A model generated the notes under the pieces. That model was not told where the DNA came from. It saw only the letters and a list, made by a program, of their open reading frames with translations, and did no database searches. Positions 2,071 through 18,919 of a DNA stretch of 38,352 nucleotides are shown here, piece after piece; positions within the stretch are counted from its first letter, which is position 1, and each line of letters begins with the position of its first letter. Origin of the DNA: Planctomycetota bacterium (GTDB lineage: Bacteria; Planctomycetota; MHYJ01; JACQXL01; JAVHLO01); the NCBI GenBank assembly GCA_031082105.1, contig JAVHLO010000001.1, forward strand, positions 1-38,352. Reading direction: 5' to 3'. The position numbers and the translations under genes were made by a program.

Positions 2071-2092
2071 CTCGACTACATAGCCTTACACA
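2071..2092. repeat. 22-nt direct repeat copy 1 (ctcgactacatagccttacaca) in the spacer upstream of hsdR
   Basis: Matches 2211-2232 at 20 of 22 positions in the same orientation, 140 bp apart, inside a non-coding stretch that looks lower in G+C. Confidence 0.6.
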
Positions 2093-2210
2093 AACGCGAC
2101 CGGATGCGAGTATTGAACAAACACGCGCTACCACTACATATTGTGTCCACGCACTTCATCTATACCACATGTAGGATCTAGTGGCGTGGTCTGCAAGATC
2201 AGCATCGTCG

Positions 2211-2232
2211 CTCAACTACATCGCCTTACACA
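2211..2232. repeat. 22-nt direct repeat copy 2 (ctcaactacatcgccttacaca), 6 nt beyond the stop codon of the AlbA_2 gene
   Basis: Matches 2071-2092 at 20 of 22 positions. Confidence 0.6.
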
Positions 2233-2238
2233 TGTTTT

Positions 2239-3696
2239 CTAGGCCCATGATGGAACGTAGCTTGCGCTCCTGCTGGAACCCGTGCCCTGGCCATGCGGTT
2301 TGACGCGTCCGGCGCAAATCGCGTCTCGAATGATACTGGAGGCCAAGGGGTAGCTGGAATCCTTGATGCCCAAACGATTCCGTAGCGATGCATTGGTCAT
2401 TCGTTTGCCGGATACGTACTGAAGACAGGCATGCTGGTAGCACGCCCGAACGCGCTCCTCACGGTTCATCTGAGCAAACTTGCGAGGACCGTAAAGGACC
2501 GCGACCGTGCTGTTTCCCGCAACTCGGAAGTCCGGCGCGGGGAGCTGAAAAAGCTCCACACCTACTATCACTTTGTCGATGCCGCTGCCGCGCTCTTCGC
2601 AGATGCTGACTCTGCGCATCAGTGCGGCCAACATCTCGTTTCGCGACTGAGGCGGCTCGTCAATGAACCTCTGCGTGTCAATCAGCGGGATGCCTGGGTT
2701 GGATATTTCTATCCGATCGGTGAATATCTCAACCATCGGGCCCGCGCCGGTGACATTGAAGTCCTGGTGGATGAGCGCGTTGGCGACCAGTTCCCGGACG
2801 GCGATTTCAGGATACGTACGGACTTCTTTCCGAAGCGCCTGGCCGATCTGCTCGTTCTGCGGAAGCTGGTCGTCAATGTAGGAGACCGCGCCCTCGAAGC
2901 CGATGGCGTAGCCCTTGCTTCCGGCCTGTTCCTTGATCGTCTCGACGCGATCACTGCCTTTGTAGATGATGACGCGCAGCGCTTTCCTGGCGAGGCGGTC
3001 GAAGTCTGTGAGGTTTCGCGCGAAAAGGATCGCGCCCACGTTGCTCATGTCGTATTTGCCGCCTGAGGTGGGCGCGATCACCTTCTCAGAAGCTAGTCGC
3101 TCCAAAATTGCCGCACGATTTTCCGGCAAGGGTTGCCCGATCAGCCGAAAGTAGTTCGGGTAGTCGAGAAGAGCAAGAACTTCGTCAGATGTCGCGCCCT
3201 CTCTGGCAGTGCCTTGTTCATAGGGTCTCCGGTCGAACCGACGCCAGAGTTCCCGTTCCTTTTCGGGGTGGTCCCGGAGTTTCTTCTTGTAGCTGCCGAT
3301 GCGAATCCATTCTGTGCCTCTGAATCCCACGGGTTTGTGCGATGCAGGCTGGATTTCGAAGAGCACAACGTGCTTCCTGTCCAGTTCGTCTTCGTGGATG
3401 CGCACGTCAACCCGTGGGTCCAATTGAGTCAGCAGCCAGTTCTCAAGTTCCTCATTGCCGACCTTCGCTTGGCGGGGACGGAAAGTTGTGCCGACGACCT
3501 GACCGGACTTGTCGTCCACTCCCCAAAGGACATAGGCGCAGGGCTTGTCATGCAGGGCAGCGGAGTTCGATAGCGCCGAAACATACTCCCCGATCTCGAC
3601 AGGATCGGCCTTACTGTGCTTGCGTTCGACCCATTCCGTTTCCTTGGGCAGGGCGACAAGCTCACGAACCAGACTCTCAAGTTGTGTCTTGTCCAT
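2239..3696 (-). CDS. AlbA_2 (Schlafen-like divergent AAA) + HATPase_c_4 + C-terminal wHTH protein, usually annotated as a putative transcriptional regulator or RecG-like ATP-binding protein
   Basis: 485-aa ORF. The N-terminal region ETEWVERKHS...ALSNSAALHDKPCAYVLWGVDDKSGQVVG fits the AlbA_2 pattern. RELVANALIHQDFNVTGAGPMVEIFTDRIEISNPG fits HATPase_c_4. Its ATG shares 1 nt with the hsdS stop (TAATG, 3694-3698). Confidence 0.8.
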   Translation of the reverse strand: MDKTQLESLVRELVALPKETEWVERKHSKADPVEIGEYVSALSNSAALHDKPCAYVLWGVDDKSGQVVGTTFRPRQAKVGNEELENWLLTQLDPRVDVRIHEDELDRKHVVLFEIQPASHKPVGFRGTEWIRIGSYKKKLRDHPEKERELWRRFDRRPYEQGTAREGATSDEVLALLDYPNYFRLIGQPLPENRAAILERLASEKVIAPTSGGKYDMSNVGAILFARNLTDFDRLARKALRVIIYKGSDRVETIKEQAGSKGYAIGFEGAVSYIDDQLPQNEQIGQALRKEVRTYPEIAVRELVANALIHQDFNVTGAGPMVEIFTDRIEISNPGIPLIDTQRFIDEPPQSRNEMLAALMRRVSICEERGSGIDKVIVGVELFQLPAPDFRVAGNSTVAVLYGPRKFAQMNREERVRACYQHACLQYVSGKRMTNASLRNRLGIKDSSYPLASSIIRDAICAGRVKPHGQGTGSSRSASYVPSWA

Positions 3697-5042
3697 TAGG
3701 CCGCCTCCCCGCGAACATCAATCTTTCCCGTCACCGCCGCCGAGATGAGCGCCGTCCGGTACTCGCGGAGCGTGGCGATGCTCTCGCGGACCTTGGCGGC
3801 CAATGCGTCAATCCGACTGGCCTCTTGATTCAGATATTCAGCGATAGCGTCTTGTTCAATTCGCGGGGGAAATGCAAAACGATAAACGCGCAGTTTTTCA
3901 GCGGTCAGGTGGGCGATTGTGTTGGGATTCCCATGCGCGATGAAAATGCCGCTCCAAGCCGCCGCTCGCATGACATAGTAGAAGTAACGAGGAAGGTCGC
4001 GGTCTGTTCGTGGACGCACCCGATGGATGGCTTTCTGAAAACCGCAAACAGGCAGTTCGCCGCGCCAAATTGCGGTCCGGCCGACTTCCCCGCCCTCGCA
4101 TATCAGAAGGTCGCCCTCTTTGAGGGTGTACCGGTTGCGCTCGTCGGGATGGAAGTCCATCTCATCCAAGTTCTCGGCATTCACGACATTCCATTGAACA
4201 TCAATATTTCGCAGGTATGGAAGGAGGTGTTCTCCAGTAATGCGTTTTGCGTCGAGCATTTTCCCCAACTGGACAATGTAGCGGGCGTAAAGAGGGGCCA
4301 CCTCCCAGTGCGCCGGAATCCTGCCGAGCCACTCGACGCCGGAATCCTTCATCTTCGCGTTGGGGTCGAGACCCTTGATGACGGCGTGGCTGATGAGTGC
4401 GGCGCGCTTCTCTTGGAGGAGTTCAATCTGCCGCTCCTTCTTCCCGATGAGCCCGTCTATCCGCGCCGTCTCGCGGTCGAGAAACGCCGCGATGGCGCGC
4501 TGCTCTGTCAGCGGCGGGACAAGAAACAGGGCATTGTCGAGGCCATACTTACTTAAGCCGTACCGCGTGATCCCCGTCGCCTCCACTCGGAACTGGTCAT
4601 TTATCCCGCGCGCAGAGAAGGCGCGGAAGAGATACCTGCCATCCATGCAATCTGATATCGCACGAACTTTGGCGAGATGATAGCCGCAGAGTACGCCTTC
4701 GAGTTGCTCGGCAACGAAGGCGGGGACGGCGATGTCATCCCATTCTTCGGAATCCTTCGTCACCAGTACGTCGCCATCCTTGATCGTAAACCGCCGGATT
4801 TCTTCCGGGGTGGCGGTAGCCGCCATGAAGTCCAGTTCGGAAGTGATGTAGTCGTGGTAGTACACGTCAATGTAGTTGCAGAGGCGTACTGGTTGCTCGC
4901 CCTCCACTGTATGCTTGTCAACGCTACTGAAGCTGGCTCTGGAAACGTGCTTCAGCCTGCGAATCTCCCAATGTGCCGGGATTCCTCCCAGCCACTCCAC
5001 GCCGGAGGGGCGGTATTCGGGATACGGTTTCCGCGCTCTCAT
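3696..5042 (-). CDS. hsdS: Type I R-M specificity subunit (HsdS) with two target-recognition domains
   Basis: Two duplicated conserved helices: LPPLTEQRAIAAFLDRETARIDGLIGKKERQIELLQEKRAALISHAV and FPPRIEQDAIAEYLNQEASRIDALAAKVRESIATLREYRTALISAAVTGKIDVR. The GVEWLG.IPAHWE motif occurs twice. The start is placed at ATG 5042..5040, which overlaps the upstream stop (TGATG). The longest ORF extends to 5099. Confidence 0.9.
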   Translation of the reverse strand: MRARKPYPEYRPSGVEWLGGIPAHWEIRRLKHVSRASFSSVDKHTVEGEQPVRLCNYIDVYYHDYITSELDFMAATATPEEIRRFTIKDGDVLVTKDSEEWDDIAVPAFVAEQLEGVLCGYHLAKVRAISDCMDGRYLFRAFSARGINDQFRVEATGITRYGLSKYGLDNALFLVPPLTEQRAIAAFLDRETARIDGLIGKKERQIELLQEKRAALISHAVIKGLDPNAKMKDSGVEWLGRIPAHWEVAPLYARYIVQLGKMLDAKRITGEHLLPYLRNIDVQWNVVNAENLDEMDFHPDERNRYTLKEGDLLICEGGEVGRTAIWRGELPVCGFQKAIHRVRPRTDRDLPRYFYYVMRAAAWSGIFIAHGNPNTIAHLTAEKLRVYRFAFPPRIEQDAIAEYLNQEASRIDALAAKVRESIATLREYRTALISAAVTGKIDVRGEAA

Positions 5043-5836
5043 CAGAATATTGCTCGCTGATAGGTCTTGGGCGGCCAAAACACTCCGAGAACCATCCACG
5101 CGTTGAATGGGAACCGGGTCCCCATGAAGAACCGCGTGTCGCGTTCAGGTGAGCACATCTCCTCCATGTATTTCCGCTTCACACTCTTGGCTGCCTCGTC
5201 GTCGGACTGGAGTCGCTCTGATTCTTTGAGAAAAAGAACTCCAAGCTCCCAGTCCAGAATCGTGGCAGTGTGAGGCTTGTCACTGTCCGGACACTCGAAA
5301 ACAAAGCGAAACTCGAAAGGCAACTTGCGCAGAGGCTTCTGCGACTCGCCAAACAGCCTGAGTTGCAGAAAAAGCTCCTGCCACTCGGGTTTCCAATCCT
5401 GTTCTGCGGGAGCGATTTCAAGGTCAAGCACCTTTGAAGGTCTGACAATCCCTAGAGATGTTCTATCAGAATCGTAGAGCGCTTTCAACTCGTTCAAGGT
5501 GCGATGAGGAACGCGGTCAATGACCTCTCTTCGCGCCCGCCAACCATCTTCGGTAGACAGGGGCTCACCAAGCACTCGCAAGGTGTCCAAGCTCGGTCGC
5601 CGGCTCTCCTTGCGGTTGTCGTTGCCCTCCCCACGATCCTCCAACTCTACTTCGACCCACTGATACTTGTGAAACCGCTGTTTTCTCGGTCGGTATCGGT
5701 AGTCTACAGGATAGAGACGCACCCATTGGCACTCCTCGGTAATCCCTGCTGCGCAGACCAACTCCTGATACGCCGTCGAGGGATGCGGATAGGTCATGAC
5801 CGTGACAAGCAGCTTGGTCAGCGTCTTCTTTGTCAA
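5042..5836 (-). CDS. Uncharacterised 264-aa protein (orphan) embedded in the Type I R-M operon
   Basis: Clean ORF with protein-like composition: MTKKTLTKLLVTVMTYPHPSTAYQELVCAAGITEECQWVRLYPVDYRY... The TTG start overlaps the upstream stop (TTGA, 5833-5836) and its stop overlaps the hsdS ATG. I recognise no catalytic motif or family. An alternative ATG start is at 5797. Confidence 0.7.
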   Translation of the reverse strand: MTKKTLTKLLVTVMTYPHPSTAYQELVCAAGITEECQWVRLYPVDYRYRPRKQRFHKYQWVEVELEDRGEGNDNRKESRRPSLDTLRVLGEPLSTEDGWRARREVIDRVPHRTLNELKALYDSDRTSLGIVRPSKVLDLEIAPAEQDWKPEWQELFLQLRLFGESQKPLRKLPFEFRFVFECPDSDKPHTATILDWELGVLFLKESERLQSDDEAAKSVKRKYMEEMCSPERDTRFFMGTRFPFNAWMVLGVFWPPKTYQRAIF

Positions 5837-6702
5837 TGCCGAATCTCCAAATGCCGGACAGGCAAGCTAGTGCGTGCCGCGAGCAGCGCCGCAAGCCGTG
5901 AACGATGACAGTGCTCCGGATTGGTCTCCACGCATACGAGTACCGACGGCCTGCCTGACATAAGTTGGGAGACGAGGGCAATCTCCTTGGACGCCCTGTT
6001 AAGGACTTGGGTCTCGTAGAACCGAAAGAGGTTCTCGTACTCTCGCGGTGTCTCAAGAGAGTCTCGCGCATCGGCAGGAACCCCGAGCGCAGGAAAATGA
6101 ACGTAATCCAAACCCAAGAAACCGCATATCCGCGCAAGTGTAGACTTGTGAAACCCATACCGACGTGAAACCGGATTGCCTCGAACGTCTATCAGCCGTT
6201 CAATTCCAGCTTGAAGAAGACCATTCAAGAAGCTGTCCACGGAACGACCCTCGTAGCCGGCGGCATAAACCGCACAGGTAGCCTTCGGCAACGTCGTTCT
6301 TGGTTTCCGGATGCTCTTCACAGTGAACCAAGGATGTTTTTCATAGACATATTTAGTCAGCGAATCGGCAGACCTTCCGCCATGCCCCAGGAGTGTCTCC
6401 CCGATATCGCGCTGTACGCTTGGCGCAACTCCCGCTACGGCATCCGTGCCCGCGGACGTGACTCGCCAGCGCTTTGGGTCGGGTTCGTCGAGAAACCCCT
6501 GCCGGACCAACGTCGAGACTTCCTGGAAAAGACAAAAAGAGAACGGGCCATGATGATACGGAAGGAAGTCGTAGAACGCGTTTCCTCCGCTGGAGGCCGT
6601 CTCATGTCGGAGAATGAATGCCCACTTCACAACATGGAGATGTGATGCCTCTCCTCCGGCCTTCCCCAGCAGCGCTAGAAGGACTTTCTGCCGATGAATC
6701 AC
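5833..6702 (-). CDS. Fusion protein: N-terminal wHTH-like domain (possibly SocA/GepA Panacea-like, tentative) + C-terminal DUF488 domain
   Basis: 289-aa ORF. The C-terminal half, VYAAGYEGRSVDSFLNGLLQAGIERLIDVRGNPVSRRYGFHKSTL...LVCVETNPEHCHRSRLAALLA, matches the DUF488 pattern as I remember it, including the C-E-x(n)-CHR signature. The N-terminus carries YDFLPYHHGPFSFCLFQEVSTLVRQGFL. The GTG start overlaps the hsdM stop (GTGA, 6699-6702). Confidence 0.75.
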   Translation of the reverse strand: MIHRQKVLLALLGKAGGEASHLHVVKWAFILRHETASSGGNAFYDFLPYHHGPFSFCLFQEVSTLVRQGFLDEPDPKRWRVTSAGTDAVAGVAPSVQRDIGETLLGHGGRSADSLTKYVYEKHPWFTVKSIRKPRTTLPKATCAVYAAGYEGRSVDSFLNGLLQAGIERLIDVRGNPVSRRYGFHKSTLARICGFLGLDYVHFPALGVPADARDSLETPREYENLFRFYETQVLNRASKEIALVSQLMSGRPSVLVCVETNPEHCHRSRLAALLAARTSLPVRHLEIRH

Positions 6703-8771
6703 TCTTCCACCTCCCCGAGCATATCGGCGATCTCACGCTCGATCTTCTTGATGTCCGCCTCGATCTCCGCAAGCGGGCGCGGCGGGACGTACTTGTAGAA
6801 GTACCTGTTGAAGTTGATCTCGTAGCCGGTCTTGGTCTTGGACTCGTCCACCCAGGCATCCGGCACGTGGGGCAGGACTTCGCGCTTCATGTATTCGCCC
6901 ACATCGTCCTTGAGCGGCACGTTCTCGTAGTCGCGGAGTTCCGGGTCCGGCTCAGGGTTGCCTTTGGCGTCCGTGCACACATCGGCGGTCTCGTCCCGTT
7001 CTGAGAGCGCATCCATGACGGCCTTGAAGACGGGCGCGGACGCTTTCACTCCAACGGCGTCTAATGCCTTTTTGACCATTTCCGCGAAGGCCTCACGATT
7101 CTTCACGACGCCTGCCTGCGCCCCGTTTCGCGGGGCAGGCAGCCCGCTCGACGCGAGGGACTGCAGGGCAGCTATGATGGCTTCCTGGGTTTTCCGGCCC
7201 TCTGCAATCTCCGCTTCCGCGCCCCTGGTATCTTTGCGTTTGCGGCTTTCCACCAGCGCCTGGAACGGTCCGGCCTCGCGTAGCCGCGCCAGCCGCTCGT
7301 CGGTCACGGCAAAGTTGAGCCGGAGCGGGCGCTCCACGGTGATCCGGCGATAGCCAAAGTCCTCGTTGCCAAAGACGCGAACGTGCTCGTCGCCTGCCTT
7401 TGCATCGCGCCTAGATGGGTCCTTGAGTTCCCCATAGAAGCGGGTGATCTCGTCCCGCTGAGATTCGCAGATTTCGTTGCGCTTGTTGCCGAGAGACTTC
7501 CGCATCTTCTTGAAGAAGGTAGTGGCGTCCACGAGCTGGATTTTCCCCCGGCGGCTCTTCTCCTTCCGGTTTGTCACGATCCACAGGTAGGTGTAGATGC
7601 CGGTATTGTAGAAGAGCTGGTCGGGCAACGCAACGATGGCCTCGAGCCAGTCGTTCTCGATGATCCAGCGGCGGATTTCGCTTTCGCCGGAACCCGCGCC
7701 GCCCGTGAAGAGCGGCGAGCCGTTGAAGACGATTGCCAGCCGGGTTCCGCCTTCTTTCGGATCCTTCATCTTGCTGATCATGTGCTGGAGGAAGAGGAGC
7801 GAGCCGTCGTTGATCCGCGGCAGACCCGCGCCGAAGCGGCCGCCGAATCCCTGCTCCTCGTGCTCCTTGCGGATGGCGTCCTCCTCCGGCTTCCACTCCA
7901 CGCCGAAGGGGGGATTGGCCAACATGTAGTCGAACCGCTTTCCGGCGTGGTGGTCCTCGGTGAAGCTGTTGCCGAAGCGGATGTTGTCGAGGCTCTGACC
8001 TTTGATGAGCATGTCCGAGCCGCAGATGGCGTAGGCCTGGGCGTTGTAGTCCTGGCCGAAAACCTTGAGGCTCGCGTCCGGGTTCAGCTCGCGGAGGTAA
8101 TCCTCCGCGACCGAGAGCATACCGCCCGTGCCACAGGCCGGATCGAACAGCGTCTTCACGATGCCCTTCTTCGTGAGCACCTCACCATCCGGCAGGAAGA
8201 GAAGGTTGACCATCAGGCGGATTACCTCGCGCGGCGTGAAGTGGTCGCCCGCCTCCTCGTTGGACGCCTCGTTGAACCGCCGGATGAGGTCCTCGAAGAT
8301 GTAGCCCATCTCGATGTTCGGCACCTTGTCCGGGTGCAGGTCGATCTCGCAGAACTTGGAGACGACGAGGTAGAGACGGTCCGCCTTGTCGAGCCGGGCG
8401 ATGTGCTCCTCGAAGCCGAAATGCTCGATGATCTCGCGGGTGCGCCCGGAGAAGCCCTTGATGCAATTGACCAGGTTCGCCGCGATGTTGTTCGGGTCGC
8501 CCTTGAGCTTCTCAAAGGTGAAACGGCTCGTGTTGAAGAACGGCACGCCGGAGACCTTGCAGAGGATGGGGTCGAGGTTCTTCACCTTGCCGCCCTGCAG
8601 GCTCTTGAGCTTCTCCAGTACTTTCTCCTTGGTGGGTTCAAGGACGCAGTCCATGCGCCGCAGGACGGTCATGGGGAGCATGACGTCCTTGTATTGGTTC
8701 GGGCGGTACGGCCCGCGCAGCAGGTCGGCGACCTGCCAGATGAAGCTCACCTTTTCGCCGAAGTTGTTCAT
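6699..8771 (-). CDS. hsdM: Type I R-M DNA methyltransferase subunit (HsdM), N6-adenine type, 690 aa
   Basis: Starts MNNFGEKVSFIWQVADLLRGPYRPNQYKDVMLPMTVLRRMD (HsdM N-terminal domain). Has the SAM motif DPACGTGGML and the catalytic motif LANPPFGVEWK. ATG 8771..8769 has a GGAAGGA RBS about 10 nt upstream. The 81 extra N-terminal codons of the listed ORF (up to 9014) read through palindromic repeats and are rejected. Confidence 0.9.
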   Translation of the reverse strand: MNNFGEKVSFIWQVADLLRGPYRPNQYKDVMLPMTVLRRMDCVLEPTKEKVLEKLKSLQGGKVKNLDPILCKVSGVPFFNTSRFTFEKLKGDPNNIAANLVNCIKGFSGRTREIIEHFGFEEHIARLDKADRLYLVVSKFCEIDLHPDKVPNIEMGYIFEDLIRRFNEASNEEAGDHFTPREVIRLMVNLLFLPDGEVLTKKGIVKTLFDPACGTGGMLSVAEDYLRELNPDASLKVFGQDYNAQAYAICGSDMLIKGQSLDNIRFGNSFTEDHHAGKRFDYMLANPPFGVEWKPEEDAIRKEHEEQGFGGRFGAGLPRINDGSLLFLQHMISKMKDPKEGGTRLAIVFNGSPLFTGGAGSGESEIRRWIIENDWLEAIVALPDQLFYNTGIYTYLWIVTNRKEKSRRGKIQLVDATTFFKKMRKSLGNKRNEICESQRDEITRFYGELKDPSRRDAKAGDEHVRVFGNEDFGYRRITVERPLRLNFAVTDERLARLREAGPFQALVESRKRKDTRGAEAEIAEGRKTQEAIIAALQSLASSGLPAPRNGAQAGVVKNREAFAEMVKKALDAVGVKASAPVFKAVMDALSERDETADVCTDAKGNPEPDPELRDYENVPLKDDVGEYMKREVLPHVPDAWVDESKTKTGYEINFNRYFYKYVPPRPLAEIEADIKKIEREIADMLGEVEE

Positions 8772-8863
8772 GATACGCGTTCCTTCCCGCGAGTTGAGAG
8801 GCCGTGCGGGCAGTTGTAGCAGTTTGCTCCGGCTTCTGTCAAGCAAAAGCTGCCCGCCCCATA

Positions 8864-8908
8864 CCCTCACCCCCGCGCTCTCCCAGGGGGAGAGGGTTAG
8901 GGTGAGGG
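8864..8908. repeat. Family A palindromic repeat (ccctcacccccgcgctctccc-aggg-ggagagggttagggtgaggg)
   Basis: Near-perfect inverted repeat. Related copies lie at 8952-9030, 29013-29045, 38125-38178, 38258-38291 and 38295-38348. Confidence 0.85.
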
Positions 8909-8951
8909 CGTTCTGTTTGCGCCGCGGGAGCGACCTTTGCCACAGGGCGTC

Positions 8952-9030
8952 CGTTCGTCCCTCACCCCCGCCCTCTCTCCCGACTTCGTCGGGATGCCGC
9001 CCCGGCGGCACCAAAGGGAGAGGGAGAAGC
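8952..9030. repeat. Family A repeat split by an internal insert
   Basis: cgttcgtccctcacccccgccctctctccc ... gggagagggag. The left part is the reverse complement of the gggagagggcgggggtgagggacgaacg core seen at 38125-38178. Confidence 0.75.
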
Positions 9031-9038: not shown

Positions 9039-10217
9039 TTACCGCCAGCAGGGCATGGTGTCGACCATGGGGTCGTTCGTGACGTTCGACTTCTTGTAGT
9101 CGGCGACGTTCATCACGAAGATGTCCTGGTTCCCGTCGCCGATTATGCGCACGAACGCGACCTTCGTGCCGTCGGGCGACCAGCATGGCATCGAGTCGTG
9201 AAAGTCGTTCTTCGTCATGCGCCGGTGCCTCGACCCGTCGGCGTTCATGATGTAGATCTCGTAGTTCTTGTCGCGCGTCGACGCGAATACGATCTTCGAT
9301 CCGTCGGAATTGTACCTCGGCGTGTAGTGGTCACGCCCCGGGGCCAGCTTCGCGATCGCCCCGGAGCCGCTGCGCTTGAGAATCTCTTCCGGATCGCCTT
9401 TCTTCTTGAAATGCGCAAACACGATGGTCGAACCGTCCGGCGAGACGCTCGGATTCCAGCAGCTCACAAGCGGCGCGTCCGCCTTCAGCTCCGTAAGCCC
9501 CTGCCCGTCCCGCTGGATCACGCTGAGCCCGCGCGGCGGTTCCTTGTTCCCGCCGCCAAGGTCCGTACAGACGGTGGTCGCGATCTTCTTGTTGTCCGGG
9601 AACCACGACGGCGCGCCCTCGATCGCCTCGCTGTTCGTCAGCCTGCGCTCGTGCTTGCCGTGCACGTCGATGATGAACAGGTCGCGTTTCTGGCCCCGAA
9701 AAGAGACGAACGCCACCCACCTGCCGTCGCGCGAGACCGCGGGTTCCGCATCGGAGTTTTCGTTCCTCGTGAGCTGTTGAACGTCCATCCCGTCCGGGGC
9801 CATCCGGAACAGCTCGTCCTCGCCGTCGCGTGAGGAGACGAAGTAGATGCGATCCGTGACCGGCTCGATCTTGTCGAGGTGTTCGGGCCAGCCGAGCGAT
9901 AGAAGACAGCGCCGGCACTGCACCTCGGTCGCGGCGCACGATTGGCAGATGACCTCTTCGAACTTCGGATCGAGGTTCTCCCGGCTGCAGATGGCGCAGG
10001 CCTTCGGGGCTTCGAACGAGCCCGGCTCCCGCTCCGCCGCCAGTTCCGCGGTGCACGTGTCGCAGAGCGTGCGCACGGGCGGCTTTTCCGCTTCGCCCGG
10101 CCCGGTCTCCTCGGCGGACACGGGCACACGCGCGCCCGCACAGGCCAGAAAAAGGATCACGGCGCATAGAAAGCCTCGCCGCAAACTTGCCGGATGTGAC
10201 CATTCGGGATATGTCAT
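9039..10217 (-). CDS. Secreted TolB-like PD40 beta-propeller protein with an N-terminal double zinc-ribbon (4x CxxC) module
   Basis: Signal-like N-terminus MTYPEWSHPASLRRGFLCAVILFLACAGA. CxxC motifs CDTC, CAIC, CQSC and CRRC. Repeated PD40-type motifs (SRDGRWVAF, SPDGSTIVF, NSDGSKIVF, SPDGTKVAF). ATG 10217 has a GGAGAG RBS. The longest ORF starts at GTG 10250. Confidence 0.8.
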   Translation of the reverse strand: MTYPEWSHPASLRRGFLCAVILFLACAGARVPVSAEETGPGEAEKPPVRTLCDTCTAELAAEREPGSFEAPKACAICSRENLDPKFEEVICQSCAATEVQCRRCLLSLGWPEHLDKIEPVTDRIYFVSSRDGEDELFRMAPDGMDVQQLTRNENSDAEPAVSRDGRWVAFVSFRGQKRDLFIIDVHGKHERRLTNSEAIEGAPSWFPDNKKIATTVCTDLGGGNKEPPRGLSVIQRDGQGLTELKADAPLVSCWNPSVSPDGSTIVFAHFKKKGDPEEILKRSGSGAIAKLAPGRDHYTPRYNSDGSKIVFASTRDKNYEIYIMNADGSRHRRMTKNDFHDSMPCWSPDGTKVAFVRIIGDGNQDIFVMNVADYKKSNVTNDPMVDTMPCWR

Positions 10218-10259: not shown

Positions 10260-13200
10260 TCACGTGTTGACACCGCCGCACCTTGCGGAAAGCGCCTCGC
10301 CTATTCTCTCGATCTCCCGCAGGATATTTGTCTGTTTGAACTCCTCCGCCAGGGACCGGGCCTTCTTCAGCTCGACCCCGGCCTTCTCCTTCTCGCCCAG
10401 TCCGGCGTGCGCCTCCGCAAGCACTGCGTACGCTTGCGCCATCTCGGACCGCCCCTGCAACTCTTCCAGGAGCCTCAGCCCCGATTCCGCATCAGCCAGC
10501 GCGCGCGCGTAGTCGCCGGTCCTGGCGCATGCGAAGCCGATCTCAACGAGCACGCGCGCTTCGTCTCCTTTCTTCCCCAATTCTCTGAAAATCGTCAGCG
10601 CCTTCCGCGAGAGCTCCAGGGACCGGCCGTAGTCGCCCCGGCTCTGATGAACACCGCCGATGTTGCCGATGGCCCGCGCAATGCCCGCCCTGTCGCCAAG
10701 CTCGGTCGACAGGCGGAGGTGTTCTTCATAATGTTCCAGGGCGCGAGCGGTGTCGCCCTGGAGCGCGTACACGCTGCCCATGTTGCCCACCGTCCGCGCC
10801 TTGCCGGCCTTGTCGCCCATCTCCTCGGCAAGCCGCAATTCCTTCCGGTAGCAGTCCATGGCGTGCACATAGTCGCCCATGTCCCAGTACACCAGCCCCA
10901 TGTTGCCGATGGCACGCGCCATCCCGGCCTTGTCGCCGAGTTCCTCCGTGAGTTGCAGGTTCTTTCGCAGGCATTCCATTGCGCGCTGACTGTCGCCCTG
11001 GTGCCTGTAGGCGAGCCCGATGTTGCCGACGGCGCTGGCCTGACCCGATTTGTTTCCCAGCTCTTCCGCGATCGCCAGGTCTGCGCGGTAACACTGCATG
11101 GCGCGTTGGTGGTCGCCCTGGTTCGCATAGACGTTGCCGATGTTGCCCAGCACGCGCGCCTTGCCGGCCTTGTCGCCGCGTTTTTCGCAGAGGCGAAGGG
11201 TGCGCTCGTAGTACTCCATGGCGCGCGCGTAATCGCCCTGAAGCCTGCACACGATTCCCATGTTCAACAACGCGGACGCGATTTCTGATTCATCGCCAAT
11301 GCTGTCGGCGAGCTCGAGGTTTCTCCGGTGATACTCCATCGCGCCGACGTAGTCGCCCCGCAGCCGGCGCAGGATTCCCGTGATGCCCATGGCGGCCGCG
11401 CGCCCCTTGAGAAAGCCGATCTGCTCGGCCAGCCGTTCCGCCGAACCCGCGATCCTCTCCGCGTCGCCCATTCGACCGTGCCGCCTGTAGATGAATGCGA
11501 GCGCCACTTGCCCGCCGACTACAAGCTCCCGGGCCGAACGCGCCTGTCCGCCGCCGCCGGCCGCTTCAGCGCTCCGGCCGGCGATCGACAACCCCTCCTC
11601 AGTGTCGCGGACGCCCTCCGCCCACATGCCGATGAAATCACAGACCCTGGCCCGGTCATACAATGCCCTGACGAGCCGGAGCTCACTGCCGGGCAGGGCG
11701 CGGCATCTGTCGACGAGCCGCGAGTAGAGTTCGATCGCCTCGCGGTTCTTGTAGTCCTCAGCCGCGTGTGCCGCGGCCTTCTCCAGGTAGTCAATCTCCT
11801 TGTCGAGGCACTCTCCCTTTCCGAAGTGGTCGGCGAGCTCGCGGCAGAACTCCTTCCGGCCGGGAAAGAGCTCCTCGATGACTTCCGCAGCCAGTCTATG
11901 GAGGTGCGCGCGCACGGACGGCGGCGGCAGGTGATAGATTGCCTTCTGCATCAGCACATGCCGGAACAGGTACGCATCCTCGGCCGACTCCGGCAACGCA
12001 AGGCGGATCCCGGCCGCGGCGCGGTCCGCCTCGACCCCGCGCGCCCCGCGTTCGGGCTGGACGGCCTGGGGAGACTTCTCCGCAACGATCAACCGCTCCT
12101 GTTCCGCGCCGGGCACGACGTCGCCCGGCTCGCCCTCGTACTCGCGGCTCCGGCCCAGGACGCGTTCAAGCACCGTCCTCAAAAAGCGCACGCCCAGTGT
12201 GGCGGCATACTTCAGCCCTTCGCGCAGGTTCGCCTCGAGCCGGTCGAACCTGGCAAGGAGGAGGTCTTCGAGCGTGGCGGGCAGGCGGCCCATCTCGCCG
12301 ATAAGCCTCGTTTCGCCCCGGCTCTCTACGAGCAGCGGCGTGCCGCGCCACCCCGTGGCCAGGTGAAGGCTCATCTGTTCCAGGAAGAACGGGTTCCCCC
12401 CGGTTCGTTCCATGAGGAAGTCAAGCAGCTCCGGCGCCGGGTTCGCGTATCCGCGCGCCTTCTCCAGGAATATCGTGCGCGCCTGCGACTGGTCGAACCC
12501 CGTCAGGATTATTTCATCGACGCGCGCGTCCATTTCTGCGTCCACGCGCGGCCTCGAACCGTCTTCTCCGAACCGGGACGTGAGCACAACGACGAACGGC
12601 ACTGAGCGCACGTTTCGCGTCATGATCTTTACCCATTCCGCGGTCGAAGGCTCCAGCCAGTGCGAGTCTTCCACCTCCAGCACGAGCGGCGACTCGTGGG
12701 CGAGCGCCCTTACCAGCTCCTTTGCCGCGTAGAGCTGGTTCTCGTGTCTCAGTTTCGGATCGTCGACCTGCCCGTACAGCGAGAACGGGGCGGGGCTCCC
12801 GTCCGGCCAATGGCAATTGACGAGCGAACCGAGGAAGGAGACTGCGCGCGTCAGCTCGCGCCGGGTCTCTTCCGGGACGGCGGGGTTCCGGGCGAGTTCT
12901 TCGACGCGGCTCTCGACTTTCCGCCGTTTCTCCTCTTCGGGAGTAAGGGCGCTCACCGCGAAGAAATGCTCGAGGCCTCTCGTCAGCGGTCCCAGCCCGC
13001 TGTCGCGCTCGAGGCAGGGCAGGTGGAGCCAGTGCCAGGGTCGCGTCGCGCGTTCGAGGTCCTTGCGCAACTCCTGGACAAGCCGCGTCTTGCCCATCCC
13101 GGGTTCGCCGTAGATATAGACAAGCCCGGCGAACCTTCCTTCTTCCGCGGGTCTCAGCAGCCCGCGGAGACGCCGCAGTTCCTCGCGGCGGCCGATCATC

Positions 13201-14462
13201 GGGCCCTCGTAGACGAGGGCGCCGGCGCGCGGGATCGATCGTTCGAAACCGAAAACCTTCTCCGGCTTCGATTTTCCCTTGAGCGGACGACATCCGAGCT
13301 CGCGGAAATCGAAGAACTTCCGGGCCGAATCGTGGACGCGCTCGGAGACGAGCGCCTCTCCCCAATCCGCGGCGGACATCAGCCGGGCGGAGGTGTTGAC
13401 GCAATCGCCGATGCACGTCCACTCGTTTCTGAACTCGCCGCCGGTCGCGCCGGAGTATGCCAGCCCCGAATCGAGTCCGGCCTTCAGGCGGGGATGCGCG
13501 GGCGTTTCACCGGGCAGGCGCGAACGCATCTGCTCGACGAAGTCCAGCGCCGCGCGGGCCGGGTTCTCGATTGCCCTCGGGGCGCCGAAGAAACAGAGGA
13601 TGGTCATCCCCTTGTCGCCGAAATCGAGCTTGTTGAACGTCCCGCCGCGCTGCGCGGCCAGTTCGCGCGCGAGGCTCAATATCCGGCCGATGTCTTCGCC
13701 CCGCGCGGTCGCCGATTCGGTCCCCTGCATTGCCGGCACGCGGGCGTCCGCGCCCGCGGCCGCCGCGTCGATCTGGATGAACACCGAGACGACCGGCTTG
13801 ATCTCGGGTTCTTTGCCGAGGTTCAGTATCTCGTCCTGGATGAATGCGTCGAGGGTCTCGGGATTGTTTGGCGGCCCGAAGTCCCGGCTCTGCTCGATGC
13901 GATCTTCGGTCCCTGCGACGAGCAGTCCGCGGGCGCCGGCGGGGATCGACTCCGCGAGCCGGATCTCGCCCGCGGCGGCGGAGCCGACCAGCCTGCACGC
14001 CGTCGCGATCGGCTCACCGAGAAAGTAGTACCCGCATCGGCCGAACGGGTCGATCGCGATCTCCCATTCGATCGTCCCGGCAGCGATCCCGCATCTCGCC
14101 TTGAAATCGAACGTGCCGTCCGGCGTATCCTGCCTGCCGATCTCATCAAACGCCCGGACGATGCCCGCGGCTGCTGAGATTGCGCGGGAGCCGTCGTCAT
14201 CGTCGGGAAACACTGCGGTGAACCCGTCGCCCGCGAACCCGGTGACGATCCCGCCACGCGCGAGAACGGCGTTGATGCACGGATCGAAGACACGGCGCAG
14301 GTTCCGGCTCATGAATTCCGCGCCGCGCTCGCCGAGCGAGAACGCGGTCTCCATGAGGGGAGTGAAGCCGGAGATGTCGACGAACAAGGCGGCGGCCCGG
14401 AGCTCGCCGCGGAGGTCCCGGGCCCGGTATCGCTTCTCAATGAAATCAGGAACATATCTCAT
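10260..14462 (-). CDS. Tandem class III adenylate/guanylate cyclase domains + AAA_16 (STAND-type) ATPase + long TPR array, about 1400 aa
   Basis: First cyclase domain (CHD1): LFVDISGFT ... GFAGDGFTAVF. Second (CHD2): FIQID ... DFGDKGMTILCFFGAP ... CIGDCVNTSARL. Walker A is YIYGEPGMGKTRLV. The C-terminus has about eight 40-residue TPR units (GNxGxVYxxQGDxxRAMxxY). ATG is at 14462; an alternative TTG is at 14501. Confidence 0.85.
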   Translation of the reverse strand: MRYVPDFIEKRYRARDLRGELRAAALFVDISGFTPLMETAFSLGERGAEFMSRNLRRVFDPCINAVLARGGIVTGFAGDGFTAVFPDDDDGSRAISAAAGIVRAFDEIGRQDTPDGTFDFKARCGIAAGTIEWEIAIDPFGRCGYYFLGEPIATACRLVGSAAAGEIRLAESIPAGARGLLVAGTEDRIEQSRDFGPPNNPETLDAFIQDEILNLGKEPEIKPVVSVFIQIDAAAAGADARVPAMQGTESATARGEDIGRILSLARELAAQRGGTFNKLDFGDKGMTILCFFGAPRAIENPARAALDFVEQMRSRLPGETPAHPRLKAGLDSGLAYSGATGGEFRNEWTCIGDCVNTSARLMSAADWGEALVSERVHDSARKFFDFRELGCRPLKGKSKPEKVFGFERSIPRAGALVYEGPMIGRREELRRLRGLLRPAEEGRFAGLVYIYGEPGMGKTRLVQELRKDLERATRPWHWLHLPCLERDSGLGPLTRGLEHFFAVSALTPEEEKRRKVESRVEELARNPAVPEETRRELTRAVSFLGSLVNCHWPDGSPAPFSLYGQVDDPKLRHENQLYAAKELVRALAHESPLVLEVEDSHWLEPSTAEWVKIMTRNVRSVPFVVVLTSRFGEDGSRPRVDAEMDARVDEIILTGFDQSQARTIFLEKARGYANPAPELLDFLMERTGGNPFFLEQMSLHLATGWRGTPLLVESRGETRLIGEMGRLPATLEDLLLARFDRLEANLREGLKYAATLGVRFLRTVLERVLGRSREYEGEPGDVVPGAEQERLIVAEKSPQAVQPERGARGVEADRAAAGIRLALPESAEDAYLFRHVLMQKAIYHLPPPSVRAHLHRLAAEVIEELFPGRKEFCRELADHFGKGECLDKEIDYLEKAAAHAAEDYKNREAIELYSRLVDRCRALPGSELRLVRALYDRARVCDFIGMWAEGVRDTEEGLSIAGRSAEAAGGGGQARSARELVVGGQVALAFIYRRHGRMGDAERIAGSAERLAEQIGFLKGRAAAMGITGILRRLRGDYVGAMEYHRRNLELADSIGDESEIASALLNMGIVCRLQGDYARAMEYYERTLRLCEKRGDKAGKARVLGNIGNVYANQGDHQRAMQCYRADLAIAEELGNKSGQASAVGNIGLAYRHQGDSQRAMECLRKNLQLTEELGDKAGMARAIGNMGLVYWDMGDYVHAMDCYRKELRLAEEMGDKAGKARTVGNMGSVYALQGDTARALEHYEEHLRLSTELGDRAGIARAIGNIGGVHQSRGDYGRSLELSRKALTIFRELGKKGDEARVLVEIGFACARTGDYARALADAESGLRLLEELQGRSEMAQAYAVLAEAHAGLGEKEKAGVELKKARSLAEEFKQTNILREIERIGEALSARCGGVNT

Positions 14463-14505
14463 GGCGGGCTCTTCGCGCTGCGATTCCGCAAGAAGCGGCA
14501 ATGCT

Positions 14506-17500
14506 TCACGCGAGTCTTCGCAGCTCCTCCTCCAGCTCCCGGGCGCGGAGCACGTATCCCTTGCCGCGCAGCGTGCCTATCGTCTCGTTGTACAACACGT
14601 GCGCGGCGGTCTTGTCGCCGAACGCGGCCTCGAACCGGGCCCGCGCGGCCGCGAGATCGACTTTCACCCGAAACGCGGCGCCGTCTCCGATGAGCCGTTC
14701 CGCCTGTTCGAGCGTCTGCGCGGCGGTCTCGTTGTCGCCCAGCTCGACGGCGTCGAGACAGATCTCCAACCGGATCCTCCCACGGAGCGCGGCGGGCAGG
14801 CCGGCCTGGTCTGCGGCCCTGAGCGCATCGCGGGCCATGACGAGCGCCTCCTTGCACCGCCCCTGTCGCCTCAGTGTGGCGGCCTTGACTGTCGCGTCGC
14901 CGACCCGGGCAAGCTCCGCGCCGAGCTCACGGGCGGCGACCAGCGCGGAATCGCACGCAAGGTGAGCCTTCTCGAACTCGCAGCGGGCAAGAAGCACGGA
15001 CGCGAGCGCGGACGACATCAGGCGCGTCTCTGTTTTCCTTCCGACGATCCCGGGTTTTTCAACGCGCTCGCGCAGCGCCTTGAGCGCGCCGTCAAGGTCG
15101 CCCTTCTCCTGCAACGCGAGCGCCATGCTGCATGCGACCATGCGCAGGCCGACCTTATGGTCGAGCCGTTCGCAGAGCGCTTTGCACTTACCGTAGTTTT
15201 CGAGCGCGTGGTCGAGTTCGCCGATGTCGCAATAGACATCGCCCACGTCGCAGAATGCCCTGGCCACGCACCGTTCGTCGCCGATCTCCCGGAAAATGGA
15301 CGTGGCGCGCGCGTAGAGCTTGAGCGCCTGCTCGAACCGCCCCTGCAGCCGGTACACGTTCGCCGCCTCCGAGAGCGCCAGCGCAAGCATCCGCCGCTCG
15401 CCCATCTCCTCGGCGATGGAGATGCTCTGTTCGCAGCACTCGGCCGCGCGGTCGAGCTCGCCCTTGTTGCGCAGCGCCTCGCCGAGGTTGCGCAGGACCA
15501 GCGCCATCCGCCACTTATCGCCTATCTCCTCGCAGATTTTGAGCGCCCGGGTCAGCAGCTCCTCGCCCTGAAGTATCTCGCCCACGTTCACGTGGCGCGA
15601 CCCGAGGTTGTTGAGCGCGGTGACCTGCCCCTGCTTGTCACCGGTCCGTTCGTAGTATCTCAACCGCGCGGTGCAACCTTCGACGTTGTCGGTGTGGTCG
15701 TCGCGGAGCGAGGCTACCTCGCTTAGCTGTTCGAGCCCTTCGAGGGTCAGCTCCTCGCCCGCGTCTCCCTGCGTCCGCGCGAGTTCGATCCCCTGCCTGA
15801 TGAGTTCCTCGCCCTCCGCGATCCGGGACCGGAGCTTCGCCTTGAACCAACCGTAGATGATGAGCGTGCGGGCGTGTTCGAGCGGATCCGCCGCCCCGGG
15901 TCCGGCCGACCGGATACGCTGCAAGGACCGTTCGAGTCTTTCCTCCGAATCATCGAACCGGCCCATGCGGAAATAGGTGCTGGCGAGCCGGCTCTCGAGC
16001 CGCGCGGATGGATTGCCCGTTGCGGCGGCCGAATCTGGCACGACGTCGGTCTTCCACATTTCCACGGCGCGGGCGAGCGCGTCCTTGAACACGGTCTCCG
16101 CCTCGGCAAGCCTGCCCAGCGTGGTGCAGATCAGTCCCATCCTCTCGAGCACGTCGATTCTCTTGCCGGGCGCGAGCTCGGTCTCGAGGAGCCGCCTGTA
16201 TGCGTCGAGCGCCTCCGCCGGCGAATGACGCCGGGCGGCATCGCGGGCGGCGTCTTCGCCGTACTTCGCGTACTTGTCCTTCGCGCCGGCGTCCCACGCG
16301 AGCCGCGCAAGGCGTTCCACGTCTTCGCCCTTCCTTCTTCTCCCTTCGAGGATTTCAGACTCCAGCCGCAGCAGCAGATCGAGGCTCAGCCTGCGCCGCC
16401 TATCCGAATTCATCGCTTGCCACGACATCTCGCGCACGCGGTCGTGGGCGAACCTGTACGTCATCACATCGCCGCTCGGCTCGTGGCGGAGGAGTCCCCT
16501 TTCAATGAGGTCGCGAAGGTCCGGGCGCGCCGGGCGGGCCGTCTTTTTTTTCGACGTCAGCAGGAGATCGATCTCGTCTTCGCGCACCGCCTTGCCCCAG
16601 ACGGCGAGGCGGTCGAGCCAGCCCCGCTCAGTCCGGCCCAGCCTGCGGATCCTGCGGGCGATCACCTCCTTCACGCTGTCGGGGAGCGCGGTGCCCTTCC
16701 ATCGCTTCCGGTCCACCTCCCAGCCCCACGGTCGCCATTTCAGTACCTGTTCGTCCACCCAGCCGCGGAGCACTTCTTCGAGGAAGAGCGGGTTTCCGCT
16801 CTCTTCCACGGCGAGTATTTTCTCCTTGAGCACCCCCGCCTCGTCGCCGAACATCGTCCTGATGAACCGGTCCTGCTGGTCGCGGGACAATGCCTTCAGC
16901 ACGCGCTCCTCCGCGTGGCCCTCGGAGACGAGCCGGTCAAGGATCTTCTTCAGGTCCTCGGTTTCTTCGCCCTCTCTCTTGGTCGCGACGATGAACACCT
17001 TGCCGGTTTCGACGCCGAGCCCGGCGCGCCGGCCAAGGAACTCAAGCAGCCTCAGGCTCATCTCGTCCGCCCACTGGATGTCGTCAAATACGAGGATCAT
17101 CCCCTTTTCCTTCGTCCCCTTGAGGACGAACTCGCTCGCCTTGTCGAGCAGCCGGATGCGCGCCTGCTCGGGGCCGAGCGCAGGCGGCTCCGCGGGCCTG
17201 TACTGCTCGGCGAGCGCGGGCACGATCTCCTTCAGGTAGGGCGCGTAGGCGCGGATGAGTCCGGGCTGAGCGCCGCCGGTGTGTTCCCAGACCTCCACCT
17301 GGCGGACCGCCTTCTCGAACACTTCCTGGGCCAGCCCGAACGGTTCCGGCGCGCCCTCGTTCGCCTTACCTTCCGCGACGGCGACCTGCTGCGTCTGCGC
17401 CCAGATGCGGAACTCGCGCGCAAGGCGGCTCTTGCCTATGCCCGACTCGCCGGAGATTATCGCAATGCGCACGCCTTTTTCCTTCTTCTCCGCCCTCTGC

Positions 17501-18699
17501 CAGAGGCTCCTGAGCCACGCGGATTCCGGCTCCCTTCCGACGAACTCGCCGCTGCTGACGTAGCCCTTGAGCGTTTCCTTCGTCTCGAGTTCGTATTCGA
17601 CGCCCGTGATACGGCTCAACGCCTTTATCACCTCGTTCGCGCTCGGCGGCCTCTGTGCGGGATACTTCGCCATCAGCCGCGTTATGAGGTCCTCTATCTC
17701 CTGCGGCAGGCCGGGCACGGCCTTGCGCACGCGCGGGATCGGCGCCTCGAGATGGTCGGTCATGACGCGGGTCTTGGAATCGCTGTCGTAGGGGAGCACG
17801 CGCGCGAAGAGCTCGTACATGGTCACGCCGAGGCCGTACAGGTCGGCGCGGTGGTCGACCGCGTCGTACCTCAGCACCTCCGGCGATATGTACGGCACGG
17901 TACCGATGACGGCGGGCGTGCCCTGGATCGACCGCTTCGCGCGCGAGGCGCCGAAGTCAACGAGTTTCACGTGGTCTTCCGCGCAGACAAGGACGTTCTC
18001 GGGTTTCACGTCGAAATGGACGAGGTCATGGGTGTGAATGAACTGCAGGCCGCGACAGAGCTGCACGATGAGGGGGACCATCTCCTGCCAGGTCATGTCC
18101 GCGGTGGCGAAGAGGAGATCCTTTCCGCTCAGCAGCTCGCAGGTGAAGAAGTAGCTTTCGCGGAGCGGGTCGGGCCCTTCCTGGATCCTGCCGAAGTCGT
18201 AAACGATCTCGACGTTCGGGTGCCTGAGCCCGGCGAGCAGCTTGAACTCGTTTTCCGGCTTCTCGTCGAGCAGCATCGTGGAGACGGATTCCTTCTGGAT
18301 GGTTTTGAGCGCGATCTGCCTGTCGTCGGAGAGCGTGTCGACTGCGAGGTACACCCTGCCCATGCCTCCCTCGCCGAGGAGCCTGACGATCCTGTAGCGG
18401 CGGTTGATGAGCTGCCCTTCCGCGGCGACGACCTCCTCTATGAGCGGCGCGAACTCGTCGTCGAGGTTCAGCGGGTGCGCATCGCGTACGAGCGGGAGGA
18501 CCGATGGCGCCTTGCGCATCGCGTCGAGGAGCGTCTCGATTTGGGCGGGCTTGAGCATGTTGAGCGACAGGACGACTTCGGTGGCGCTGCGTCCGCTCTC
18601 GCGAACCGCGTCGCGGCACCGGCGCGCCTCTTCATCCGTCAAGAGCGAATGCTGGAGCGCGAACCGGATGAACTGCTCGTTTGTCTGCAATTGGTCCAT
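14506..18699 (-). CDS. Ser/Thr protein kinase + AAA_16 (STAND-type) ATPase + TPR array, 1397 aa
   Basis: Glycine loop LGEGGMGRVY, IALK lysine, catalytic loop HFDVKPEN (non-RD), DFG and SPE. Walker A IISGESGIGKSRLA and Walker B ILVFDDIQWADE. C-terminal 40-residue-period TPR units. Its stop lies 43 nt upstream of the cyclase ATG. Confidence 0.9.
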   Translation of the reverse strand: MDQLQTNEQFIRFALQHSLLTDEEARRCRDAVRESGRSATEVVLSLNMLKPAQIETLLDAMRKAPSVLPLVRDAHPLNLDDEFAPLIEEVVAAEGQLINRRYRIVRLLGEGGMGRVYLAVDTLSDDRQIALKTIQKESVSTMLLDEKPENEFKLLAGLRHPNVEIVYDFGRIQEGPDPLRESYFFTCELLSGKDLLFATADMTWQEMVPLIVQLCRGLQFIHTHDLVHFDVKPENVLVCAEDHVKLVDFGASRAKRSIQGTPAVIGTVPYISPEVLRYDAVDHRADLYGLGVTMYELFARVLPYDSDSKTRVMTDHLEAPIPRVRKAVPGLPQEIEDLITRLMAKYPAQRPPSANEVIKALSRITGVEYELETKETLKGYVSSGEFVGREPESAWLRSLWQRAEKKEKGVRIAIISGESGIGKSRLAREFRIWAQTQQVAVAEGKANEGAPEPFGLAQEVFEKAVRQVEVWEHTGGAQPGLIRAYAPYLKEIVPALAEQYRPAEPPALGPEQARIRLLDKASEFVLKGTKEKGMILVFDDIQWADEMSLRLLEFLGRRAGLGVETGKVFIVATKREGEETEDLKKILDRLVSEGHAEERVLKALSRDQQDRFIRTMFGDEAGVLKEKILAVEESGNPLFLEEVLRGWVDEQVLKWRPWGWEVDRKRWKGTALPDSVKEVIARRIRRLGRTERGWLDRLAVWGKAVREDEIDLLLTSKKKTARPARPDLRDLIERGLLRHEPSGDVMTYRFAHDRVREMSWQAMNSDRRRRLSLDLLLRLESEILEGRRRKGEDVERLARLAWDAGAKDKYAKYGEDAARDAARRHSPAEALDAYRRLLETELAPGKRIDVLERMGLICTTLGRLAEAETVFKDALARAVEMWKTDVVPDSAAATGNPSARLESRLASTYFRMGRFDDSEERLERSLQRIRSAGPGAADPLEHARTLIIYGWFKAKLRSRIAEGEELIRQGIELARTQGDAGEELTLEGLEQLSEVASLRDDHTDNVEGCTARLRYYERTGDKQGQVTALNNLGSRHVNVGEILQGEELLTRALKICEEIGDKWRMALVLRNLGEALRNKGELDRAAECCEQSISIAEEMGERRMLALALSEAANVYRLQGRFEQALKLYARATSIFREIGDERCVARAFCDVGDVYCDIGELDHALENYGKCKALCERLDHKVGLRMVACSMALALQEKGDLDGALKALRERVEKPGIVGRKTETRLMSSALASVLLARCEFEKAHLACDSALVAARELGAELARVGDATVKAATLRRQGRCKEALVMARDALRAADQAGLPAALRGRIRLEICLDAVELGDNETAAQTLEQAERLIGDGAAFRVKVDLAAARARFEAAFGDKTAAHVLYNETIGTLRGKGYVLRARELEEELRRLA

Positions 18700-18919
18700 G
18701 ATCGGCGAAACCCGCTCAAGCCCGGCAAGCGACCGCCGGCGCGCGCCCGATTCGGCGCCGGCGGATCGTTCGAAAGAGGATACCAGAGAACGGAAGTGTT
18801 GTCAAGTCCGGTGGGAAGTCGGCAGGTATTTGGCGACTCCTCCCCGGCCCGCGGTGAAAGGCCGGACACGTGTCAGACTCGCACGGGCATCCCCCCCGTG
18901 CGCACGACACGCGCAAGGC

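Follow-up and report, generated by a model that had tools for sequence, protein, structure and literature searches.

The window analyzed here is a stretch of 38,352 nucleotides from the Planctomycetota bacterium contig JAVHLO010000001.1 (assembly GCA_031082105.1), and it carries two giant genes back to back on the minus strand. One encodes a protein with an N-terminal Ser/Thr kinase, the other a protein with an N-terminal tandem nucleotidyl cyclase, and in both the output domain is followed by a STAND-type NTPase and a tetratricopeptide repeat (TPR) array. We consider it likely, with a probability of about 0.7, that these are two anciently diverged, ordinary STAND signaling genes lying side by side, probably co-transcribed, whose adjacency to a Type I restriction-modification (R-M) locus is incidental. 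The components of the pair are well precedented, and what is specific appears to be their arrangement in this lineage. An initial annotation of the same DNA had weighed ordinary regulatory machinery, a two-branch sensor, and a defense-related module, and the first of these is the reading that our results support, as each architecture is that of a large family with members in many phyla.

The kinase-STAND-TPR gene (14506..18699, minus strand) encodes 1397 aa. The cyclase open reading frame (ORF) that follows it was called at 10260..14501 (minus strand), which is longer than the gene is likely to be: all six aligned homologues (6/6) begin with the N-terminus M-x-R/A-Y/F/L-I/V-P, and therefore the ATG at 14462 is the most likely start. 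This gives a soluble adenylyl cyclase (sAC)-like cyclase-STAND-TPR gene at 10260..14462 (minus strand), a protein of 1400 aa, and a spacer of 43 nt (14463..14505, minus strand) that separates the kinase stop codon from the cyclase ATG, in agreement with the initial description of two same-strand genes of ~1400 aa that are 43 nt apart. No terminator-like hairpin was found in this spacer. Upstream of the kinase gene, within a 378-nt divergent intergenic region, lies a sigma-70-like promoter match (TTGACA, 17 nt, TG-TATCCT; 18777..18805, minus strand), which is a consensus match only. Because the spacers are short, no terminator-like site separates the genes, and a promoter-like site precedes the first of them, the two genes are probably co-transcribed, which leaves room for functional coupling.

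Judged by its sequence and its predicted structure, the cyclase gene encodes a bacterial sAC-like protein (C1-C2, nucleotide-binding oligomerization domain [NOD], TPR) and is a probable counterpart of full-length soluble adenylyl cyclase (ADCY10), its closest known relative, which the initial annotation missed. Pfam places Guanylate_cyc at residues 307-415 (E=1.9e-7), AAA_16 at 436-639 (E=1.5e-19), and TPR_12 (E=4e-48), with TPR_MalT above its cut-off and no DNA-binding domain in the scan. The domains run from C1 (~18-170) and C2 (~220-410) through the AAA_16/NOD region (~421-860; Walker A GEPGMGKT, Walker B VLEVED, and a GNPFF motif) to a regular 40-residue TPR_12 array at ~1030-1390. Although Pfam detects only the second cyclase domain, a family profile built from the N-terminal 800 residues and 30 homologues, searched against the PDB with hmmsearch, recovers both cyclase domains of human sAC, and the "tandem cyclase" of the initial annotation is upheld. 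The top match of this profile is human ADCY10 (E=1e-32), with sAC C1 (39-199) and C2 (283-466) matched separately. In the AlphaFold (AF2) model of the cyclase (pLDDT 76.7), the 24 best Foldseek matches are all human sAC, over ~470 columns with a target TM-score (TMt) of 0.64-0.69, so that sAC is the best match in the PDB by both sequence and fold, at an identity of only ~20% to the human catalytic core.

Catalytic residues were mapped through the profile-to-sAC alignment from the PDB search. In C1, D29/D79 align with the metal-binding D47/D99 of sAC; in C2, K278/T349 align with the adenine-binding K334/T405, and N356/R360 with the transition-state residues N412/R416. D29, D79, N356, and R360 are invariant in the cyclase clade, and K278 and T349 are found in 6/7 sequences of the alignment used (A1). 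Since C1 provides Asp29/Asp79 and C2 provides both Lys278/Thr349 and Asn356/Arg360, the protein is predicted to be an active adenylyl cyclase making cAMP; the two domains would pair within the chain as a pseudo-heterodimer and share one active site. The bicarbonate-binding residues of sAC (Lys95/Arg176) are replaced by Gly75/Cys156, and neither position is conserved in the clade alignment; therefore, bicarbonate activation is not expected, and regulation in the style of mammalian sAC was rejected. Non-mammalian sACs reportedly also lack the two bicarbonate-binding residues (PMC12867704), and thus these residues mark mammalian regulation rather than the sAC family. Bicarbonate-responsive bacterial sAC-like cyclases are on record through Kobayashi et al. 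2004, as that work is cited in PMC11006738.

The likeness to sAC extends beyond the catalytic domains. An sAC has been defined by two catalytic domains, the lack of a transmembrane segment, and a P-loop NTPase, which bacterial sAC is also reported to have (PMC6660944), and for full-length sAC a STAND P-loop domain has been reported as a prediction (PMC12802110). In the window protein, as in sAC, a tandem C1-C2 is followed in the same chain by a P-loop STAND NTPase, and the AAA_16 match lies C-terminal to C2. The fold of the cyclase NOD is assigned through its homology to the NOD of the kinase protein over 362 columns (hhalign probability 97.6%). When the NOD and TPR parts were searched against the PDB by sequence, only TPR proteins (LGN/Pins and designed CTPRs) were found. 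The C-terminal part of the window protein is a long, regular TPR_12 array.

A large Planctomycetota clade (P0012-P0035 and similar) consists of ~790-aa proteins with a sAC-like C1-C2 and NOD but no TPR sensor, ~40% identical to the cyclase protein. In the mycobacterial cyclase-ATPase-LuxR proteins, a single cyclase domain must homodimerize, and a C-terminal LuxR helix-turn-helix domain serves as the output; the window cyclase differs from them in having a tandem C1-C2 and no DNA-binding domain. Rv0386, Rv1358, and Rv2488c of this group carry both a class III cyclase and a MalT-like P-loop ATPase, with TPRs as well in Rv0386 (bioRxiv 10.1101/2024.03.06.583649).

The upstream gene is predicted to encode a PknK-like Ser/Thr kinase. 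Pfam finds Pkinase at residues 102-357 (E=2.7e-41), AAA_16 at 385-561 (E=2.6e-22), and a TPR_12/TPR_MalT array at ~800-1390 (TPR_12 E=5e-34; TPR_MalT above its cut-off), and the AAA_16/NOD region (~376-800) carries Walker A GESGIGKS, Walker B ILVFDD, and a GNPLF motif. In the alignment of the kinase clade (A3), every Hanks catalytic residue is invariant, namely GEGGMG, K132, E151, D230/K232/N235, D248-F-G, and the APE-like P273-E274. The HRD motif reads HFD in this protein, and its Arg is Phe, Leu, or Gly across the clade, which makes this a non-RD kinase clade. The NOD was modeled with a pLDDT of 90.4, and its Foldseek matches include Cdc6/Orc1, Apaf-1 (query TM-score [TMq] 0.54), and plant NLRs such as NRC2 (TMq 0.51); the predicted fold is the nucleotide-binding, helical, and winged-helix domain arrangement (NBD-HD-WHD) of STAND proteins.

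Most bacterial STAND proteins are either activators of the MalT type or Ser/Thr kinases such as PknK, and the kinase-NOD-TPR layout is a major bacterial subfamily typified by the latter (PMC4381067, PMC6468293). Like PknK of Mycobacterium tuberculosis and other MalT-family STAND kinases, the window protein has an N-terminal kinase of the Hanks type, then an AAA_16/MalT-like NOD, and at its C-terminus a TPR-type sensor. PknK comes from a different phylum, and the likeness is one of architecture; in contrast to PknK, the window clade is non-RD (H-F/L/G-D) and has a conserved N-terminal extension of ~65 aa that lacks a Pfam match. This extension (residues 1-65; 18505-18699, minus strand) is a conserved helical region with …EQF-x-RFALQ-x-x-LLT… in the clade. 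Searches of the N-terminal 100 residues and the NOD-to-TPR linkers against Pfam at E<=1 gave nothing meaningful, and an MshEN/T2SSE_N-like reading of the N-terminus was dropped as an idea that no tool supported. The comparisons drawn in the initial annotation with PknK and with the mycobacterial cyclase-ATPase proteins are apt (PMC4381067; bioRxiv 10.1101/2024.03.06.583649).

Pfam and the sequences agree that the two proteins share a chassis of output domain, AAA_16 NTPase (P-loops GESGIGKS and GEPGMGKT), and TPR array, as had been noted initially. They do not, as had also been proposed, differ only in the output domain. In a BLASTP comparison of the two proteins, only the TPR regions (25-27% identity) and a stretch of 20 residues at Walker A align. 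In phmmer, the two NTPase cores reach 13 bits with each other, whereas against their nearest own relatives they score 629 bits (kinase) and 445 bits (cyclase). By hhalign, the NODs are 22% identical over the columns aligned. Given the low phmmer score together with 22% identity at the high hhalign probability stated above, the two cores are homologous but anciently diverged, sharing a type of chassis and no recent duplication. No DNA-level repeat was found between or within the two genes. Recent tandem duplication with a swap of the output domain, which the term "tandem paralogous arrangement" had implied, was therefore rejected on the phmmer score, the NOD and TPR identities, and the missing DNA repeat. 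Both proteins are best placed as separate members of the AAA_16 (MalT-like) branch of STAND NTPases with TPR sensors.

At least 120 homologues were listed for each architecture, and the matches listed span Planctomycetota, Bacteroidota (Saprospiraceae), Chloroflexota, Polyangia, Fermentibacteria, and other phyla. The five closest homologues listed (P0002, P0003, P0004, P0122, and P0123; MDQ7778293 to MDQ7779676) all come from one Planctomycetota metagenome-assembled genome (MAG), three of cyclase type at 43-50% identity and two of kinase type at 54-59%. They sit on five different contigs, which differ in length, and have non-adjacent accessions (MDQ7778293, MDQ7778924, MDQ7779314, MDQ7779585, and MDQ7779676), and thus the kinase- and cyclase-type genes are dispersed paralogue families in the nearest genome. 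The lineage is very sparsely sampled, since all five closest homologues are from a single MAG; among the matches listed from a collection of 5.8 billion proteins, no relative exceeds 59% identity.

Taking one genome per species, the synteny scan covered 31 loci, of which 29 hold a tandem-cyclase relative; the other two (L027 and L028) hold kinase-NOD proteins and no cyclase relatives. An adjacent kinase-STAND gene was found at 0/29 of the tandem-cyclase loci and at none of the further loci, so the kinase-cyclase pairing whose conservation the initial annotation had put forward as a check is not conserved. Kinase matches occur nearby at only one of the 29 (L024, Polyangiaceae), where they are 5-8 kb off and on the opposite strand. 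At the further loci, no kinase domain lies near the relative in L034, and no kinase gene is among the called neighbors in L048. Four assemblies (L044-L047) carry an identical 803-aa TPR-less cyclase relative (8001-10412 in L044), with a NUDIX gene and an 892-aa plain Ser/Thr kinase divergently upstream and a NikR/CbiMNQO operon downstream, and no STAND kinase in the neighborhood. Comparing the window with 36 loci, no conserved neighbors were found except a generic GGDEF domain and a weak PD40 match, the latter at L017 and 7 kb from its cyclase-STAND match. The tandem arrangement and the proximity to an R-M locus thus both appear specific to this lineage.

The scan of metagenomes with the kinase alignment gave only one close relative (L037). 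In this relative, as in P0124 and P0126, the kinase gene is preceded by a GAF-GGDEF-GAF gene; such a gene lies directly upstream of kinase relatives of 37-44% identity at 5563-8022 in L035, 7275-10004 in L036, and ~6678-7370 in L037. Among the matches, it is also common to find kinase, AAA_16, and TPR fused in one chain with GAF, GGDEF, and sigma-54 activator modules (P0127, P0132, P0138, and others). Together this suggests a recurrent link between the kinase clade and cyclic di-GMP-type modules. The window itself holds a GAF-GGDEF diguanylate cyclase gene at 22189-23361 (minus strand), 3.5 kb upstream of the kinase gene and separated from it by genes for a cupin, a lipid A acyltransferase, and HflX; its product is 29% identical to the partner genes of L035 and L036, in the GGDEF domain only.

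By analogy with MalT and PH0952 (PMC4381067, PMC6468293), both proteins may operate by the STAND switch mechanism. In the resting state, each would be a closed monomer with bound ADP, kept inactive by its own arm and TPR sensor. A ligand bound to the TPR array would lead to ADP/ATP exchange and oligomerization, and as a result the N-terminal enzyme, kinase or C1-C2 cyclase, would become active or clustered.

Several points weigh against two ordinary genes that are neighbors without further significance: (i) the 43-nt same-strand adjacency of two rare giant STAND genes is a priori unlikely to arise by chance (we put it at roughly 1-3% per genome for families of 5-20 copies each); (ii) other lineages have kinase and cyclase fused on a single chassis of this kind (TIGR03903 and P0240, the latter with Pkinase, Guanylate_cyc, and AAA_16); and (iii) the adjacency may reflect a functional link that went undetected because the synteny sample is too distant, with relatives at most 50% identical. 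These observations could also be explained by a dedicated two-output module, in which the STAND pair is co-expressed and functionally coupled, either by responding to related cues or through phosphorylation of the cyclase by the kinase or co-assembly of the two. The operon-like layout, with one promoter-like site upstream and no terminator-like site between the genes, is consistent with such a module, as are the known kinase+cyclase+AAA_16 fusions and the repeated occurrence of kinase relatives beside, or fused with, another type of nucleotide cyclase, GAF-GGDEF. TIGR03903 (TOMM kinase/cyclase fusion) unites kinase, cyclase, and an AAA_16-type NTPase in one chain, whereas the window has two chassis; residues 265-768 of the cyclase protein match positions 325-799 of its profile and residues 386-831 of the kinase protein match positions 483-911, at 168.9 and 116.6 bits, respectively, against a cut-off of 705.75 bits, so that both fall outside the family. 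Among the scanned genes of the window, none for TOMM biosynthesis was seen.

We nevertheless regard the dedicated module as unlikely. The pairing is absent from every relative examined, the paralogues are dispersed in the closest genome, and NODs that are only 22% identical argue against co-assembly in one oligomer; in addition, the pair was picked for its adjacency, which introduces a selection effect. Its most specific form, a co-transcribed dual-output unit in which one cue yields both Ser/Thr phosphorylation and cAMP and the kinase directly gates the cyclase, as a split version of the known fusions, is more doubtful still. The two-branch sensor of the initial annotation is a possible reading, and it draws on the operon-like spacing here and the kinase+cyclase fusions elsewhere.

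The remaining explanation ties the pair to its downstream neighborhood. The initial annotation correctly reported a co-oriented Type I R-M locus nearby: it is a complete locus at 2-9014, downstream of the pair on the same strand and ~1.3-1.5 kb away. Between the two is a co-oriented gene for a probable secreted PD40/TolB-like beta-propeller (9039..10217, minus strand), with a signal peptide and four CxxC pairs. It is located between the cyclase gene and hsdM, ~42 nt past the cyclase stop codon, and may be on the same transcript as the pair; it is not conserved beside relatives of the cyclase gene. The locus itself, all on the minus strand, comprises hsdM (ORF 6699..9014, with the PADLOC match beginning at residue 82), DUF488/PDC-M19A (5833..6702), PDC-M19B (5042..5836), hsdS (3696..5099), a Schlafen/AlbA_2 + HATPase_c_4 gene (2239..3696), and hsdR (2..1714), which is cut by the window start. 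The inserts that the initial annotation had called novel match the PADLOC candidate system PDC-M19 (E=7e-73 and 1e-76). The ~570-aa minus-strand ORF (MPSQHREIAFETAIEQHLL...) at the window start is read as hsdR because of where it sits in the locus and not from a family match. A 493-aa ORF on the plus strand (2..1483), which overlaps the N-terminal part of this ORF, has no family match and was rejected as a spurious high-GC artifact. Upstream of the pair are core genes (cupin, lipid A acyltransferase, HflX, PxpB/C, Lgt, and a MurQ-like SIS protein).

That the pair could be an anti-phage module, with Avs-like STAND sensors or Pycsar-like cyclic nucleotide monophosphate (cNMP) signaling, within a defense island containing the R-M locus, is suggested by the proximity of that locus with its PDC-M19A/B and Schlafen/AlbA_2 genes, and by the three-part architecture that the window proteins have in common with Avs, in which a STAND NTPase stands between an N-terminal effector and a TPR-like sensor at the C-terminus. 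At the domain level, PADLOC also links the kinase protein with PD-T4-6 and mad6 and gives the cyclase protein weak matches to PycC (best E=7.7e-12, spanning 128 residues), but these are confined to generic kinase, cyclase, and TPR domains. No Avs (AVAST) model was matched in PADLOC by the full proteins, nor by either NOD+TPR part at E<=1, and in the Foldseek list for the kinase NOD, Avs4 ranks only 37th, behind Cdc6/Orc1, Apaf-1, and plant NLRs. A kinase or an adenylyl cyclase is a signaling enzyme and not an obvious abortive-infection effector. The cyclase is of the sAC and not the PycC type, and no gene for a cNMP-activated effector lies beside it, its immediate neighbors being the kinase-STAND gene and the PD40 gene, whose product has no PADLOC match. 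Codon composition points the same way: the GC content at third codon positions is 0.83-0.86 in the pair and 0.77-0.86 in core genes (0.77-0.88 elsewhere in the window), unlike the 0.59-0.69 of the four genes between hsdM and hsdR.

The neighborhoods of relatives likewise argue against a role in defense. For 23 relatives of the cyclase gene, the 124 ORFs taken from within 5 kb are heterogeneous in Pfam content (Response_reg 5, the type IX secretion sorting domain Por_Secre_tail 5, Radical_SAM 4, MFS 3), and PADLOC matches among them are sporadic and mostly generic (sigma-54 activators, OmpA/MotB, radical SAM); this census is approximate, as ORFs were picked by a greedy procedure that is crude in high-GC loci, and it leaves out eight ORFs of >1000 aa as well as L012, a near-duplicate locus. 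The neighbors of relatives are thus heterogeneous housekeeping and signaling genes, and the enrichment near defense genes that the initial annotation had considered was not seen. A 2026 survey of STAND proteins judged defense association by neighborhood or by effector type (PMC13581612). On neither count does the pair resemble a defense system: relatives have no defense neighborhood, adjacency to an R-M locus is not conserved, and the effectors, a kinase and an adenylyl cyclase, are not of an immune type. With the pair non-syntenic in relatives, a defense role is unsupported and in our judgment very improbable, and the adjacency to the R-M locus is incidental.

The value of this result is mainly negative, in that a position next to an R-M locus is by itself no reason to count the pair as a candidate defense system or a conserved "two-branch" system. 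A modest positive outcome is that the cyclase gene offers a clean bacterial example of the full-length sAC layout (C1-C2, STAND NOD, TPR). In a 2025 study, no nucleotide effect distinguished full-length from truncated sAC, and the role of the C-terminal STAND region was left unexplained (PMC12802110). Should the pair prove to be a dual-output unit after all, it would be a tractable bacterial model for this still unexplained region. Irrespective of this, bacterial members of the family with an obvious TPR sensor could help to test whether the STAND region of sAC acts as a ligand-gated oligomerization switch.

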